64,000 nucleotides of DNA from Nitrospirota bacterium (GTDB taxonomy: Bacteria; Nitrospirota; UBA9217): the NCBI GenBank assembly GCA_963818475.1, contig CAWFSF010000005.1:416001-480000 (forward strand), given 5' to 3'. The notes under the pieces are model-generated. The model had not been told where the DNA came from and made no database searches. It saw nothing but the letters and a program-made list of their open reading frames with translations. Position numbers and translations under genes: made by a program. This document shows, in pieces, positions 33,458-40,900 of this stretch. Each line of letters opens with the position of its first letter. The first letter of the stretch is position 1.

Positions 33458-34982
33458 CTAGAGCCGCTCAATGGCCCTTTTCAGGGCTTCCGCCTTCTCG
33501 AGCGTTTCCTCGTACTCCCGCTGCGGCACGGAGTCGGCAACGATCCCGGCCCCGACCTGAACGTGGGCCTGCTGGTCCTTGACCACGAAGGTCCGGATGA
33601 TGATGTTCAGGTCCAGGTCGCCGGTGTTCGCCAGATACCCGATGGACCCGGTATAGGGGCCGCGTGCCACCGGCTCCAGCTCGTCAATGATCTCCATGCA
33701 GCGCACCTTCGGCACCCCGGTGATCGTGCCGCCCGGGAACACGGCGCGGATGAGGTCGCATGCGTCCTTTCCCGGGGAGAGCGTGCCGCGCACATTCGAA
33801 ACAATATGGATCACGTGCGAATAATCCTCAACCACCATCAGCTCGTCGACCACGACCGTGCCGTAGTCGCAGACCCGGCCGAGGTCGCTCCGCTCAAGGT
33901 CAAGCAGCATGATGTGCTCCGCGCGCTCCTTCTCGTTCGTCAGGAGCTCCGCGGACAACCCCCGGGTCTCTCTGCTGTCGCCGCCCCGGCGGCGCGTACC
34001 CGCGATAGGCCGCGTGTCCGCCACGCCCTTCACCAGCCTGACGAGCCGCTCCGGCGATGAACTGACGAGCTGCAACCCCTCGAAATCCAGAAAAGCGGCA
34101 AAGGGAGAAGGATTTATCTCACGCAGGATCCGATAGAGATGCAGGGGGTCCACAGCGCCGATGGCCGCTGTGAACCGCTGTGAAAGATTTGCCTGGTAGA
34201 TGTCGCCTGCCGCGATATATTCCTTGCAGCGCAGGACCATCGATTCGAAGATCTCTCGCTGCATGTTCGGCTCAAGACGCACCTGGCCGCTGTTTTCTCC
34301 CGTCGAGGCGGGCGGACCCGGCATTGCGCTTGGCACGAAGCCTCTCCTCCGTGGCCGAAAGGCGGGCCACGGCCTCATCATAGAGCCGCTCCCACTGGTC
34401 CGGATCAGGCCTGCGGAACCCCATTTCCTGCTCACGCGCGCCGGGATTCACGATGATCCAGGCCCGGTTCAGGAGGTGGTCGAAGGCTACGACCAGATCG
34501 ACGAACACAAAATAGGCCTCGGGAATATCGAGGTCGCGTTTCGCGTTCTGCGGAACTGCCTCGAATTGACGAACAAAGTCGTAGGAGAAGAATCCGACGG
34601 CCCCGCCGGTAAAGGGCGGCAGTCCCTCGATGCGTTCGGTGCGGTAATTGGACAAAAGCTCCCGGAGCTTCAGGAGTGGTTTTTTATTTACCGTTGCACG
34701 ACGCCCATACTTGCCCGCAGGTGTTGCCGGCAGGCACAGTTCCACATTTTCTCCCTGCGACCGGAAGATGAGGTAGGGATCTGACGTGACAAAGGAATAC
34801 CTGCCCGTCCGCTCGGTGACCCGGGCGCTTTCGAGCAGCACGGCATGGCCGCCTGACCGAAGCGCTTCGAGCGCTGCCATTGGGGTGAGCGCGGGCTGGT
34901 CAAGAACGGCATGAAGCGGCAGTATGCGGCCGCTTCGGGCCGCGTCGAGGAATTCCTGTTTTGCTGGCGATATCGTATCCAT
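33458..34982 (-). CDS. Anthranilate/aminodeoxychorismate synthase component I (TrpE/PabB family), frameshifted
   Basis: LLESAR..GRYSF, GGAVGFFSYD, SSSPERL, KERAEHIMLLDLERSD, FPGGTITGVPK, GAGIVADS. Confidence 0.92.
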
Positions 34983-35046
34983 AAGAAATTATCCGTCCGA
35001 TATTAAAGTCTCCGGGACGGACGGTCAAGACAATTTTAAAAAATTA

Positions 35047-35074
35047 TTGCAACCTTGACATTTTGTGCTATACT
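35047..35074 (+). promoter_or_regulatory. Sigma70 promoter with extended -10
   Basis: TTGCAA(35047-52)-N16-TATACT(35069-74) with TG at 35066-67; AT-rich UP-like sequence upstream. Confidence 0.7.
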
Positions 35075-35090
35075 GAAATTAAAGAATAAG

Positions 35091-35103
35091 TGATCTTTGA
35101 AAA
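35091..35103 (+). promoter_or_regulatory. boxA-like antitermination element
   Basis: TGATCTTTGAAAA, matching the rRNA-leader boxA form, about 10-20 nt after the predicted TSS. Confidence 0.6.
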
Positions 35104-35120
35104 GAGTAAAAGTACAAAAC

Positions 35121-35428
35121 GGCGTTGCCGGACCAGCACCGTTCGGTGTATGCTTTTTAACACCGCTTATTAGGACCACGGTCGGTTGTTCTGATATGCC
35201 GAGATTGGAAAGTGGGCTGCAAGTTGAGTGGCCAGGCTCCCAACCTACAGGGTTCAGGATGACAGGAATTACCGAAGGCCCTCCGCCGGCTGCGAACACG
35301 GGAGAAAGGATCAATAAATGTACTACACCGGGTCTGCGCTAGCAGAGCCAAAGAAGCACAGTATTGAATTCCCGTAAGTATCAGCTGGCCTCGCGGAATG
35401 TTAAAATCCTTGGCCCGTAAGCAACGCC
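35121..35428 (+). ncRNA. Candidate large structured ncRNA of unknown family (about 310 nt)
   Basis: Own promoter and terminator; five nested long-range helices (35121-28/35421-28, 35129-36/35410-17, 35155-66/35393-406, 35172-78/35386-91, 35191-97/35378-84); no ORF with RBS. Confidence 0.7.
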
Positions 35429-35446
35429 TTTTTTATGTATTTCCCT

Positions 35447-35477
35447 GCCGACCATGTAACTCATGGCCGGCTTTTTT
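35447..35477 (+). terminator. Intrinsic terminator of the ncRNA unit
   Basis: GCCGACCATG-taact-CATGGCCGGC-TTTTTT. Confidence 0.82.
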
Positions 35478-35504
35478 ATGGTATTAATTCAAGTCAAAAT
35501 ATCG

Positions 35505-35592
35505 TCCGCAGATTACGCAGATTACGCAGATTTTAAAGACATGATTTAAGCTGCTTTGCCTTAATCTGTGAAATCTGCGTCATCTGCGGATA
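35505..35592. repeat. CGCAGATTA-type palindromic element
   Basis: (CGCAGATTA)x3 arm versus AATCTGTGAAATCTGCGTCATCTGCGG arm; related elements at about 23877, 53100 and 56461. Confidence 0.75.
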
Positions 35593-35664
35593 AAAGATTT
35601 TGCTCTGATGTTTATCCTTCCTTATCAGACGTTCACGCTCTTATTGATCAATCCAAATGGTCTT

Positions 35665-37134
35665 CTATGCCTTTAGCATCTCCGGATTGGTGTGTGGAAT
35701 GAACACCGCGCCCAGATATTCCTTCATAAACTCCGGGTCGTCATCCATGGGTTTGTACGTGATCTTTTCCGCAAGGGCATTCACCGTCCGCACCAGCTCT
35801 CCCTCCGTGAGCAGCAGGCGCGCTCCGGCAAGCGATGAATTCCCGAGCGGCTTGACGATCTCAGGAGGCCAGGTCGGCAGCATGCCGATGCCCACAGCCT
35901 TTTCCGCATTAATGCCCGTGCCGAGCGCACCGGCGACATAGACCTTATCGATATCGCCGAAAGAGATGCCGACCGAACGGGTGAGCACCAGAAGCAGCGT
36001 GAACATGGCTGCTTTGGATTTCATGAAGCTCTGGATCTCGTTCTGCGTGATGTACAGTGAGTCCTGGCAATCGCAGGCAATGGCGAAGGCCGGCTCTCCC
36101 TCCCGGGTCGTCACGTGCCTGCCGGGCTGCAGCACCCCGCTTTTATCGATCACTCCCGCCTGGTACAGTTCATAGAGCAGGCTCACCATGCCTGAGCCGC
36201 AGATCCCTTCGGCCGGCCCCTGGTCAAAGGTCTTGCAGGAGATGTTGGGGCCGTCTATCGTCACATCATACACGATCCCCTTCCTCGCCCGCTTCCCGAT
36301 CCTGCTGATCCCTTCTTCGAGCGCAGGGCCGGCCGCGCCGGCGCCCACGATCATCCAGTCCCGGTTCCCGATCACCACCTCTGCATTGGTGCCCACATCG
36401 ATCAGGATCGAGATCTGTTCGGAGCTGAACATGCCCGACGAAAGGATGCCTGCGGTTATGTCGCCGCCGACATAGCTTCCCGCGTTCGGGAACGCGTAGA
36501 CGAGGGCTTCGGGATTCAGATGAAGATGCAGTTCCCTGGCGCTGAAGAACCCCGGCGTTCTCACCACCGGCACATAGGGATCAACGGGGATCGTGCGGAT
36601 ATCCAGGCCGAGGAAGAAATGGGTCATAACGGTGTTGCCTGCCACCGTCATGGCATGGATATCGTTCCGATCGATGCCTGCTTCATTACAGAGGGTCGCT
36701 ATCAGTTCGTTGATGCCCCGGATCAGGACGCCGTAAACGTCCGCAGCGCGTGCGGACATGGCGTTGTGCAGGCGGGTCATGATATCGCTGCCATACGCGA
36801 CCTGCGGATTTTCCAGGCTTCTCGTCAGCACATCCTGTTGGCAGTCATTATCGTAGAGCAAAGCCACGAGGTTCGTGGTCCCCAGGTCAAGCGCCAGGGA
36901 ATAGGATCGTTCGGCCCCGATGTCAATAAGCCGGTATCCCGATCCGGCCCGTCCTACGATGCACGTGAACGCCTGCCCGGCATTCACGAGTGCCGGAAGT
37001 TTTTTCAGGACCGCAAGCGGGATCGCGAGGGGTCCAAGCCCGAGGGTATCCTCTATCCGCTGATCATGCGCCCGGCGGTCATCGCTCGTGGGGGGCGGCA
37101 AAAGGACAGTTCTTTTTTCTATGAGTGCGGTCAC
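35665..37134 (-). CDS. ASKHA/DUF4445 protein (RACo-like corrinoid reductive activator family)
   Basis: LDLGTTN, NPQVAYGSDI, YVGGDI, IDVGTNAEV, AAGPALE, GICGSG, GNSSLAGA. Confidence 0.9.
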   Translation of the reverse strand: MTALIEKRTVLLPPPTSDDRRAHDQRIEDTLGLGPLAIPLAVLKKLPALVNAGQAFTCIVGRAGSGYRLIDIGAERSYSLALDLGTTNLVALLYDNDCQQDVLTRSLENPQVAYGSDIMTRLHNAMSARAADVYGVLIRGINELIATLCNEAGIDRNDIHAMTVAGNTVMTHFFLGLDIRTIPVDPYVPVVRTPGFFSARELHLHLNPEALVYAFPNAGSYVGGDITAGILSSGMFSSEQISILIDVGTNAEVVIGNRDWMIVGAGAAGPALEEGISRIGKRARKGIVYDVTIDGPNISCKTFDQGPAEGICGSGMVSLLYELYQAGVIDKSGVLQPGRHVTTREGEPAFAIACDCQDSLYITQNEIQSFMKSKAAMFTLLLVLTRSVGISFGDIDKVYVAGALGTGINAEKAVGIGMLPTWPPEIVKPLGNSSLAGARLLLTEGELVRTVNALAEKITYKPMDDDPEFMKEYLGAVFIPHTNPEMLKA

Positions 37135-37883: not shown

Positions 37884-37994
37884 CACGCTTCCCTCAAGCC
37901 TCACCTGCTGCACGGAGTGCAGTTCATCCCCTTCACCAAGAGCCCCTGGCAATACCTGCCCGGGAAAATGCAGTGCACCCTCATCGTTTCGGTT

Positions 37995-40900
37995 ATGATA
38001 GGAGACTCCTTGAATATCGCGAAATTGATACCCCCCTCATCGTCGCGCGCTCTCGAACGGGACCGGCTTCTCAGCAAACTGCAGGAATGGGATGAAAAAA
38101 AGCTGATCATCATCCACGGACAGGCAGGCCAGGGCAAGAGCACGCTCGTCGCAACCCACCTTCATTCGCTCGCAACACCGGCTGCGTGGTATACCCTGGA
38201 CCAGGATGATGCCGACCCTGCTGTTTTTCTCGCCGGCCTCGCACAGGCGCTCAAGCGCATCTGGCCGGACCAGACGTTCCCTCCTCCTCCTATCCCGCAG
38301 AATGGTCCCAGCGCGTTCCGTGAAACAGCGGCTCTGCACCGCTGGACCAGTCAGACCTTCAGCAGCCTTCATCAACCGGGCCTTCTTGTGCTGGATGATT
38401 ACCATGCCATAGCCTCGCCAATGGAGTTCGACCTCGTCCTGCGGACGCTGATCGACGCAACGCCTCCGCTGGTCCGGTTCATCATCATCTCCCGGACGCA
38501 GCCGTCGCTGGAGGTCGCCCGCCTCCGCGCGCGGCGCACGCTCGGCGTGCTTACGGGACAAGACCTCGCCTTCGATGACGGGGAAGCGCACGATCTCTTC
38601 CGCGACGTCTTCGGGATGCCGCTGGACCGGACGGAGAGTACTCGCATCAACCGCAGGGCCGAGGGTTGGCCTGCCGGGCTGGTGCTCACGCACGAATATC
38701 TCGCCCAGTCATCGTCGCAAAACAGCAGCGGTATCTTCGGAGCCAACCATGCTGACAAATTGCAGCCTCCGGTCTTTGAATATCTTGCGCAGGAGGTTTT
38801 TTCTCTGCTGGGTCCGGGCCTGCAGGATTTTCTTCTGCGAACCTCGGTCACGAACTGCCTGCCCCTCCGTCTCATCCAGCAACTGACCGGCCTGCCCTTG
38901 ACCGCGGCTGCGGACAAGCGCTCGGTCACGTCCATGGTGCAGGAGCTGCAGAACAGAAATCTTTTTATTTCCGTGACCGACGACGGGGCCGTGGTCCGCT
39001 ACCATGCCCTTTTTCACGAGTTTCTTCTGAAAAAACTGCAGGGATCGGCCAAACCAGCTGTCGTGCGAACGCTCTTCGCGACGGCGATCCAATACTTCGA
39101 GCAGGCCGACGATCCGGTTCGCGCCATAGACCTTTCCCTTGCAGCAGGCCAGGTCAAACAAGCGGTCCTTCAGATCGAGGCCTGCGGCCGGGACCTGCTT
39201 GCGCGTGGGCAGATCCAGACACTGCTCCGGTGGATAGGTGTTTTGCCTGTTGATCAGCAGGACCGGCCGTGGTTCCTGTTCTTTCGCGCAAATGCCCTGC
39301 GCTTCAGCGCTCCCGGCGAGGCGCTTCTGCTGCTGGACCGCGCTTTGGCCAGGTTCCGCAAGGAGCAGAAAACATCCAGCCGTTCCACGGGAGAAATGGC
39401 CTGCCTCTGCGGGATCATCGAGGCATGCTTCCATTCGGGCGGAGATTTCCACCGCATGGGGCGCGCGGCGTTGCTGGCGCAGGCGCTCCTGAGGCGCACC
39501 AGCCGCGTGTCGACCGCAGCGCGCGCCCGGCTGCTGCTCGCCGTGGGCACGGCATGGTTCTTCATCGGCAAGCTCGAAGAGGCCACGGAATCCCTGACGC
39601 AGGCACATGACCTTTTCTCCCGGCAGAACGACCCGATGTCCTGTATTACGAGCGTTCTCTACCTTGCTCCGAGCGCGCTCTACCAGGGTGATTTTCGCAA
39701 GGCCCGGACGGCGCTGCGCAAAGGCTTCGAAGCCCGCGCTGCCGTCCCCGATGACAAGGGAAGCCATGCCGCACTTTTGCTGATCCAGGCCATGACCGAT
39801 CTGTTCGAGGGAAAATTTGCCGAGGCGCAGGAAACGCTTGGGCAATGCACGGCGCTCGTCGATGCCCATGCGCTCGTGTCGATCGGTTCCCTGGCGCTCG
39901 TCATCGGCGGGTGGCTCAAGATCGCACAGGGCGACCACCGCGGAGCGGAACTGCTTCTTGAGGAGTGTAAACGCCGGGGCGAGGAGTCGCAGGATGCCTT
40001 TTTTTCCGCGTCCGCAGCCCATCTGCTCGCCATCTCCCATATGTTCCAGCGCAGGCTCGTACCGGCGAAGACCCAGTCGGATTACGCGCTGTCCATACGG
40101 ACCCAATCGGGAAGCAAGCTGTTCCATGCCATCTACCTCATCACCAGCGGCGCCATCCTCATGAAGCTCGGCAAACACGTGCGCGCGGAAAAGGAACTGC
40201 TTGGTGCACTCAGGATGCTTCAGCAGGTCAAGGCAGCGCAGCAGGAAGCAAATGCCCACCTGGTGCTGGCCCAGCTGTATGGAAAGATAAAAAAGAAAAC
40301 CCTCGTGCAGAAGCATTTGCGGGCAGGTTTTTCCATCGGCCAGGACCGGGGCTTCACCTACTACGCCCTGTTCAATGCGGGAGAACTGTCACAACTCGCG
40401 CAGCAGGCCATCGCGCAGGGCATCTGCATTGATCACTGCACCGACCTGCTCAGCCTGCGTTCTGGAGAGCCACAAGCTCCGCGTCTTCAGGTCTACTGCC
40501 TGGGCGATTTCCGGGTGGAGCGGGACCAGGCGGTCCTCAGCGATGCAGCATGGAAAAGCAAGCTGGCCAAGACCCTGCTCAAGATGCTCCTGGCCCGGGA
40601 CGACCACAAGCTGCTGCACGACCAGGTCATGGACACGCTCTGGCCGGACATTGGTCCGGAAAAGCAGCGGGCGGCATACAGCGTCATGCTCCACCGCATG
40701 CGGAAGGCGCTCGAACCTGGGGCCGGTCCGGAACCGGGAAAGGACGTCTTCTGCATTCAGCATGACCAGGACGTGCTTGCACTCAACAGCGCACGGGTCT
40801 GGACCGATGTGAGCGAGTTTCGAAAACGATTCGGACAGGCCACGCGGTTAAAGCGGACCAAGCGATGCCGCCAAAGCGCTTGAAGCATACGAAAGCACGC

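Follow-up and report, generated by a model that had tools for sequence, protein, structure and literature searches.

The 64-kb window analysed here comprises 64,000 nucleotides (nt) of contig CAWFSF010000005.1 from the Nitrospirota bacterium assembly GCA_963818475.1. At 35113-35434 on the plus strand it very probably holds the stand-alone gene of a non-coding RNA of about 316 nt that is highly structured and very abundant and forms a new family, as suggested in outline by an earlier note that was made from the letters of the window. The RNA is a new class whose existence and fold are well supported and whose biogenesis is reasonably inferred. The devices around it (an extended -10 promoter, a boxA and a U-run) are known; the RNA itself matches no described family. 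Its fixed pairing with trpE, its paralogues, and the head-to-tail joints in RNA-library contigs go beyond the earlier note.

A fold predicted from the single sequence is modest against shuffles (z -2.69 for the plus strand and -3.99 for the minus strand), so the window on its own proves little. The comparative evidence, counted for a 70-pair structure on a model-guided alignment of 66 distinct sequences, is decisive, and puts the predicted fold beyond chance. Paired cells make up 89.5% (versus 83.0 +/- 0.2 in shuffles), changes on both sides are seen in 54/70 pairs (versus 28.6 +/- 2.7), and 0/500 shuffles reach the real alignment in any measure. When partners are slid by 1-3 columns, only 34-43% of cells pair. 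This covariation bears out the structured RNA that had been proposed. The strand test gives 315 G-U cells versus 138 A-C cells.

In the predicted fold, P1, P1b, P3, and P4 make up a long closing stem, which has the hairpin P2 at its side and carries two multi-helix domains (Table 1). The end helix P1, GGCGTTGC at 35121-35128 with GCAACGCC at 35421-35428, hardly varies and pairs in 99.6% of cells. Pairing is 94.8% in P1b, where one pair is AU in 42 sequences and GC in 21, and 91% in P4. P3 is A/U-rich and weak, and its complementarity is kept by different words (UUUUAAC/GUUAAAA, UGAUA/UAUCA, and GGUGAC/GUUAACC). The helices of Domain A (helices 5-10 of the count) are 79-98% paired, with changes on both sides in every pair, and P12 of Domain B carries a conserved G.G mismatch. 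P7, P9, and P10 vary in length and, again with different words, form at -5 kcal/mol or better in 88%, 94%, and 100% of sequences. RNAalifold on plain MAFFT alignments returned partial structures only (63 pairs for alignment A1 and 45 for A3). Crude all-against-all pair scans were swamped by clade signal and discarded.

Nine helices had been read from the window in the earlier note, and five agree with the comparative fold: the end pairing GGCGTTGC/GCAACGCC, which is canonical in 100% of cells among the 66 distinct sequences, CGGACC/GGCCCG, TTTTAAC+CCGC/GCGG+GTTAAAA, GGCTGC/GTGGCC, and GGTCTGC/GCAGAGCC. The other four are complementary in the window and are not conserved among relatives, where AGGACCA/TGGCCT is canonical in 58% of cells, CTGATAT/GTATCAG in 40%, CTCCC/GGGAG in 59%, and AACCT/GGGTT in 61%; they clash with the covarying helices P5, P7, P8, P9, and P10.

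The RNA is present in every genome examined of the family to which the window belongs. In other genera of the family, BLAST finds relatives over the full length with 66-85% identity; on its own it undercounts, returning a single copy in the genome of the window and 17/41 relatives. A pattern of the two end motifs was scanned over one genome from each of 185,579 species and gave 54 stretches; the 46 titled Nitrospirota, Nitrospirae, Nitrospiria, or Nitrospiraceae all fit the family profile and the 8 from other phyla do not. The same end-motif pattern gave 105 stretches in metagenome contigs. A covariance model of 317 positions (R1) matches 27/27 other genomes of the family, which answers the earlier suggestion to look for homologues. 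On 123 genomes of 21 other Nitrospirota families the model gave no full-length match, only two 30-nt matches at 24-25 bits. The genomes searched thus show the RNA in every member examined of one family-level Nitrospirota lineage and in no other. The carrier family is uncultured and widespread in soil, sediment, and groundwater.

The covariance model detects four copies in the genome of the window (Table 1), three of which are paralogues missed by BLAST; these (loci L096-L098) have their own promoters and terminators and lie in unrelated gene contexts. Several relatives carry 2-3. At L008/L045 (relative G006), L166, L193, and L109, two or three copies stand in tandem on the same strand, 72-170 nt apart, and in these arrays the boxA is constant only in the copy proximal to trpE. 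One group of paralogues, which we call type 2, has a TTGACA...TGTGGTATAnT promoter that ends about 7 nt before (A)GGCG, so transcription should start at P1 there. The type 2 paralogues are without boxA and U-run and have an ordinary terminator 25-35 nt after GCC. These promoter and terminator positions indicate that the functional RNA is the stretch from P1 to P1. The paralogues retain the fold while the sequence drifts. Their neighbours include prismane, histidine kinase, DUF72, DUF2127, and phosphoribosyltransferase genes, and a search for a divergent gene common to the type 2 paralogues found none.

The gene lies in a 680-nt gap between trpE (34982 down to 33458) and a RACo/DUF4445 gene (37209-35665, assigned by Pfam), both on the minus strand. 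The gap had been described as holding no convincing open reading frame, and this stands: the two frames within 34983-35664 have no Pfam match, and no frame is kept among relatives. Every plus-strand frame anchored at GGCG is interrupted by stops in 49-50/51 sequences, and with only 1-2/51 sequences free of stops in any such frame a small protein gene is rejected. The proposed plus-strand promoter (TTGCAA, 16 nt, and a TG-extended TATACT) was recovered by a promoter scan, and we place the transcription start, from the position of this promoter, at approximately 35081. Among the copies proximal to trpE, an extended -10 (TGnTAWWnT) is found 45-94 nt (median 57) upstream of GGCG in 47/47. The conserved promoter and the varying downstream neighbours support a gene that stands alone.

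The leader contains the boxA-like element GATCTTTGAAAA, which had been named in the earlier note. It differs by one base from GGTCTTTGAAAA, a word in the genome's own 16S ribosomal RNA (rRNA) leader, 106 nt upstream of 16S and after a TTGACA-type promoter, which we take from consensus sequences to be the rRNA boxA. Many relatives have GGTCTTTGAAA. A TCTTT core is present within 60 nt of GGCG in 47/47 copies proximal to trpE and the strict boxA motif in 35/47. As judged from the letters, the element therefore appears to have both marks of a boxA, likeness to the rrn leader of the same genome and a conserved site in a transcribed leader. A partial duplicate of the rRNA leader was also observed on contig C1 (L113 3440-3700), about 460 nt upstream of the real leader; it holds a second promoter-like stretch, a second GGTCTTTGAAAA, and approximately the first 90 nt of 16S.

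At the other end, a U-run directly follows P1, with at least 4 T in 50/51 sequences. The hairpin-U6 terminator that had been assigned to 35447-35477 is present in the window, where it is of ordinary type. It is not a feature of the RNA family; another terminator occurs within 90 nt downstream in only 9/51 sequences, and in 42/51 P1 with its U-run is the sole terminator-like site. The helix next to the U-run closes about 290 nt and not a short loop. The first bases of the U-run are able to pair with the purine-rich last bases of the leader, and the two positions outside P1 pair canonically in 54 and 58 of the 66 sequences. A duplex of leader and trailer beyond P1 is no better than in shuffles (median z 0.28), and no conserved extended stem of the RNase III type was found.

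Twenty public sequencing runs hold part of the stretch and 8 are RNA libraries. Contigs from four RNA runs (X8-X11), metatranscriptomes from two studies, were compared with 701 nt of the locus. In all four libraries the contigs lie on 35113-35434, and the only other cover within the 701 nt is 1-6x at 35548-35600; the stretches 34900-35091 and 35452-35547, uncovered in all four runs, carry no evidential weight. The shares of words in the other public runs likewise say nothing about habitat. By contig depth the RNA is very abundant in X9, the one library with many contigs. Our own arithmetic from the table of depths gives about 31 million word occurrences for 285 million letters read in that run. 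The abundance claimed in the earlier note thus holds for contigs at high summed depth.

Some of these contigs join the end of the RNA to its beginning. A 298-nt contig of X8 (depth 276) passes from 35308-35428 straight into 35113-35287, going back 316 nt, with 121 letters on the shorter side. A contig of X9, from the other study, ends in '...GGCAACGCCTTTCAC' directly before 35117; here the 3' end of a relative's RNA is joined to a GTTCAC-type leader that is found in several relatives. Both joints have a 5' end 7-8 nt before GGCG and P1, 3' of the boxA, and a 3' end 0-3 nt after GCC and P1, and they place the mature ends near 35113/35114 and 35428-35431. Either part of the RNA exists as a circle, or the assembler has wrapped a linear RNA owing to rare chimeras from template switching; in both cases the joints mark processed ends. 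X9 has two more joints, at depth 53 and 26, which run from 35420/35421 to 35119 with the additional letters AG or G; these resemble template-switch artefacts.

We propose that the strong promoter drives the RNA gene and that Nus factors load at the boxA and modify RNA polymerase, as on rRNA operons. The modified complex would keep the 5' leader close to the enzyme until the two arms of P1, about 290 nt apart, can meet. Closing of P1 and P1b beside the U-run would then end transcription, which would make the whole RNA its own terminator hairpin. The leader, including the boxA, would be cut off approximately 8 nt before P1 and the U tail trimmed to 0-3 U. A compact, nuclease-resistant particle would accumulate, possibly after ligation of the ends. 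The invariance of P1, the conservation of the loops, and expression at an rRNA-like level point to a particle bound by protein. Our guess is that P1 and the conserved internal loops are recognised by one or more proteins, and that the RNA acts as a stable ribonucleoprotein or scaffold and not by base-pairing with mRNA.

Several points weigh against this account. It deduces Nus binding, the start of transcription, its end at the U-run, and the processing sites from sequence and from contig joints. The contigs cannot show strand, true ends, or level, and summed depth reflects expression poorly. Folded singly, the sequence scores better on its minus strand, and the 138 A-C cells are not negligible. 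The alignment was fitted by the model to 51 of the 70 counted pairs, a bias towards structure. P1 is without covariation support because it essentially never varies, and its invariance arises partly by construction, as the pattern scans required both P1 arms. The strict boxA pattern is missed by 12/47 copies proximal to trpE. No partner protein was found, and neighbours other than trpE vary. To our knowledge, a long-range helix serving as an intrinsic terminator would be unusual.

Searches against known RNAs returned no identity. With Rfam 15 (4227 models) at gathering scores, the whole window contains two tRNAs and nothing else, and at E up to 10 with lax filters there is nothing credible in the RNA unit on either strand of 34950-35700. 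The best weak matches in the unit are TLS-PK6 (15.5 bits, cut-off 44) and DUF805b (13.3 bits, cut-off 35.6). The models include OLE, ROOL, GOLLD, raiA, HEARO, T-box, group I/II introns, and self-cleaving ribozymes. Four housekeeping RNAs have no match here and have their own genes elsewhere in the genome, above gathering scores: RNase P RNA (contig C2, 278.3 bits), transfer-messenger RNA (tmRNA; C3, 189.6 bits), signal recognition particle (SRP) RNA (C2, 72.9 bits), and 6S RNA (C6, 87.6 bits). The earlier exclusion of tmRNA, SRP RNA, RNase P, and T-box RNAs was therefore correct, the last for want of any T-box match in Rfam. A split-off piece of rRNA was rejected, since the rRNA operon of the genome is complete (16S-tRNA-tRNA-23S-5S, covering 1-2925 of the 23S model and 1-1533 of the 16S model, with 5S present). 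A likeness of '...AGAAGCAGCCAU...', found in some members, to the GTPase-associated region of 23S was considered and gained no support from blastn-short or nhmmer against that operon (best E 0.03 over 13 nt). A full-text literature search, which did not cover supplementary files that could list candidate motifs, found no paper on such an RNA, and the text of PMC11109978 contains 0 matches for Nitrospir, trpE, and circular. The family was rightly called unrecognised.

The mature RNA may be a covalently closed circle, with the ends held by P1 joined by an RNA ligase such as RtcB; we consider this a real possibility that falls somewhat short of an even chance. It would extend the explanation given above and not replace it, the open end of P1 becoming an 8-9-nt hairpin loop. 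The joints of X8 and X9 come from two studies and agree on the ends, and DNA does not encode the joint: a pattern in which the 5' arm comes no more than 30 nt after the 3' arm has 0 matches in metagenome contigs, versus 105 gene-bearing stretches, and the tandem copies in the genomes examined are 72-170 nt apart. The very high depth would fit as well. However, the joints are known from contigs only; because a linear end makes no branch in a de Bruijn graph, a contig can be wrapped by a handful of chimeric reads, and template switching by reverse transcriptase on an abundant RNA could yield such reads, so the joined share is unreadable from contigs. The two further joints of X9 look like artefacts, the contigs of X10 and X11 are unjoined (that of X10 reaches 35434), and a 5' triphosphate would be expected on the paralogues that start at P1. 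The genome encodes RtcB, but this enzyme is so widespread that its presence says little. The full sequence of events, in which a self-terminating RNA made with boxA and Nus loses its leader and is ligated into a circle of about 316 nt at rRNA-like levels, is a tentative proposal. As a side observation, RtcB of this genome is matched in two adjacent frames at C6:1410921-1412217 (-), covering profile positions 1-353 and 352-426, possibly through a frameshift or an assembly error.

A functional tie to tryptophan synthesis is unlikely, although the linkage between the RNA and trpE is nearly absolute. The start of trpE lies 132-199 nt from the 5' end of the RNA, on the other strand, in 46/51 distinct genome sequences; the remaining 5 are 4 extra copies and 1 (L074) without visible trpE. 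For the 80 hits to the RNA at metagenome loci, trpE is found at 132-200 nt (median 152.5) in 58, and the others are 7 extra copies, 14 with too little flank to judge, and 1 without trpE. Pfam confirmed TrpE in the upstream frame of 9/10 loci tested, the tenth being an extra copy; on the downstream side the genes change between genera. At 18 loci from 8 other families, the sequence directly before trpE is coding and no such RNA is present. Between the RNA and trpE, approximately 10-25 nt before the start codon and back to back with the RNA promoter, is a conserved trpE promoter-like site of the TTGACC...TAcAAT type with repeated GACAATTC words. Read by eye, words of the type GGTCAAGACAATTC / AAAGACAATTC lie over its -35 and -10 at 35000-35046 and are conserved in relatives; these repeats look like operator half-sites for some regulator. 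The RNA could act in trans as a regulator of the trp operon, or its strong transcription could tune the trpE promoter, perhaps via shared operator sites or supercoiling from divergent transcription. Paralogues in contexts unrelated to trp argue against such roles, as does an rRNA-like expression that is out of scale for the regulator of a single operon. No complementarity to trpE and no convincing CsrA-like GGA motifs, TRAP-like triplets, T-box features, or Trp-related motif were found in a search made by eye only. The shared promoter region of 140 nt is also a small target for rearrangement, and inheritance alone may explain part of the linkage. In the window, trpE itself is split into an N-terminal domain at 34272-34982 and a chorismate-binding domain at 33458-34435 (-); its open frame is 238 aa versus 509-535 aa in most relatives, and either the gene is frameshifted or the assembly is wrong here.

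It is very improbable that the RNA belongs to a mobile element, a phage, or a defence system as a guide, retron, or template RNA; genomes have several copies and some have them in tandem, but the chromosomal place beside trpE is fixed across the family, all 27 other family genomes examined carry the RNA, and no gene for a reverse transcriptase, transposase, recombinase, or nuclease recurs next to it. A cis-acting 5' leader of trpE on the minus strand (T-box, riboswitch, or attenuator) is scarcely credible: the location upstream of trpE in nearly all genomes and the slightly better single-sequence fold of that strand would suit it, but neither strand matches a T-box or any other Rfam model, the plus strand is the one that carries the conserved promoter, boxA, and U-run, G-U cells exceed A-C cells there, the trpE promoter-like site separates the RNA from trpE, and the paralogues lie away from trp genes with promoters and terminators on the strand of the RNA.

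Table 1. Coordinates of the RNA gene, its predicted helices, neighbouring features, family copies in the same genome, and RNA-library contigs (positions are those of the window unless a contig is named)
Feature	Position	Strand	Remarks
trpE (anthranilate synthase component I), divergent neighbour	33458-34982	-	two overlapping frames in this assembly
trpE promoter-like site	35000-35028	-	TTGACC, 17 nt, TAATAT; back to back with RNA promoter
Promoter of RNA gene	35047-35074	+	TTGCAA, 16 nt, TG-extended -10 TATACT; promoter scan
boxA-like element GATCTTTGAAAA	35092-35103	+	in the leader, 3' of the -10 end at 35074
RNA	35113-35434	+	about 316 nt; span of RNA-library contigs
5' arms of P1 (GGCGUUGC) and P1b (CGGACC)	35121-35134	+	pair with 35412-35417 and 35421-35428
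P2 hairpin (GCACC / GGUGU)	35136-35149	+	comparative fold
5' arms of P3 (UUUUAAC) and P4 (CCGC)	35155-35167	+	pair with 35392-35406
Domain A, P5-P8	35172-35282	+	hairpin 35205-35243, apex GCUGC-AAGUUGA-GUGGC
Domain B, P9-P12	35286-35389	+	P9 CCGGCUG/AGCUGGC; P10 ACGGGAG/UUCCCGU; P11; P12 GGGUCUGC/GCAGAGCC
3' arms of P4, P3, P1b, P1	35392-35428	+	comparative fold
U6 run directly after P1	35429-35434	+	conserved terminator-like feature of the RNA family
Second hairpin and T-run terminator	~35447-35477	+	ordinary type; specific to the genus of the window
Window copy, covariance-model match	35119-35436	+	275 bits
Paralogue	C2:801630-801939	+	109.5 bits
Paralogue	C5:209521-209825	-	98 bits
Paralogue	C6:1357940-1358250	+	47 bits
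RNA run X8			9 contigs on RNA
RNA run X9			502 contigs on RNA; summed word depth up to 2.3e5
RNA run X10	35141-35434		298-nt contig, through the whole U-run
RNA run X11	from 35121		283-nt contig

Two other features of the window were noted. Just past the RNA unit, at 35486-35606, is an imperfect inverted repeat of CAGATTACG-like words, ccgcagattacgcagattacgcagatttt ... ctgtgaaatctgcgtcatctgcgg, with a sub-threshold Rfam match to MIR408 (25.8 bits versus a cut-off of 64); it may be an element like the repetitive extragenic palindromes or a protein binding site. The window also encodes, at 37917-40883 (+), a 988-aa protein with a NACHT/STAND NTPase domain and MalT-like TPR repeats, a design of the type found in NTPases of signalling or defence.

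Large structured RNAs are seldom newly found, and each so far has opened the question of what else complex RNA folds do in bacteria. The present family resembles OLE, ROOL, GOLLD, raiA, and HEARO in being complex and multi-helix, confined to a single lineage, stand-alone, and abundant, a likeness of kind only, tested by Rfam alone. It differs from them in having no Rfam match, another size and lineage, a boxA leader, and a fixed neighbour. Like 6S, RNase P, tmRNA, and SRP RNA, it is structured, stable, and abundant, and stands alone under its own promoter; unlike those four, which are all found elsewhere in the genome, it has paralogues. Reads of such an RNA in metatranscriptomes of soil and sediment, in some of which it is very abundant by contig depth, may go unassigned at present.

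T-box elements, trp attenuator leaders, and rnTrpL, presented in passages of PMC6614838 as an attenuator-derived small RNA, share with this RNA a position adjoining trpE. The RNA described here is on the opposite strand, has its own promoter, is much larger, has no Rfam match, and has paralogues away from trp. The constancy with which it is paired with the trpE promoter is another puzzle, one open to direct testing. Circular RNAs offer another comparison. The circular non-coding RNA DucS of Bacillus altitudinis (as given in parts of PMC10504365) and archaeal circular C/D box small RNAs and rRNA intermediates (likewise in parts of PMC9014305 and PMC12558985) are similar in their head-to-tail joints in RNA data. 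Here the RNA ends are held by a helix and the joints are seen in contigs only; there is no sequence relation, and the circle is a candidate. If the joints are real circles, the family would offer a conserved and abundant substrate for bacterial RNA ligases such as RtcB, and would itself be a bacterial circular RNA that is conserved, universal to its lineage, and made by a defined route.

The closest parallel to the proposed biogenesis is the leader of rRNA operons. The boxA device is known mainly from these operons, plus a few other cases, and the Nus/SuhB complex acts there as an RNA chaperone in the long-range pairing of rRNA. Both systems have a strong promoter, a boxA (here one base from the rrn leader word), a long untranslated structured RNA whose distant ends pair, and a leader that is apparently removed. 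They differ in that the product here is a 316-nt RNA unrelated to rRNA, the U-run directly follows the closing helix, and the RNA has no conserved extended stem of the RNase III type. Portions of PMC4807359, PMC10250234, and PMC8632103 state that the Nus/SuhB antitermination complex aids long-range RNA pairing. If the Nus complex also helps the ends of this RNA meet, the family would provide a compact natural model for the idea of transcription complexes as RNA chaperones. The family stands out in being universal in its lineage, in having paralogues that drift in sequence under a constant fold, in placing a boxA on a small stand-alone RNA, and in having a closing helix that seemingly serves as its own terminator.

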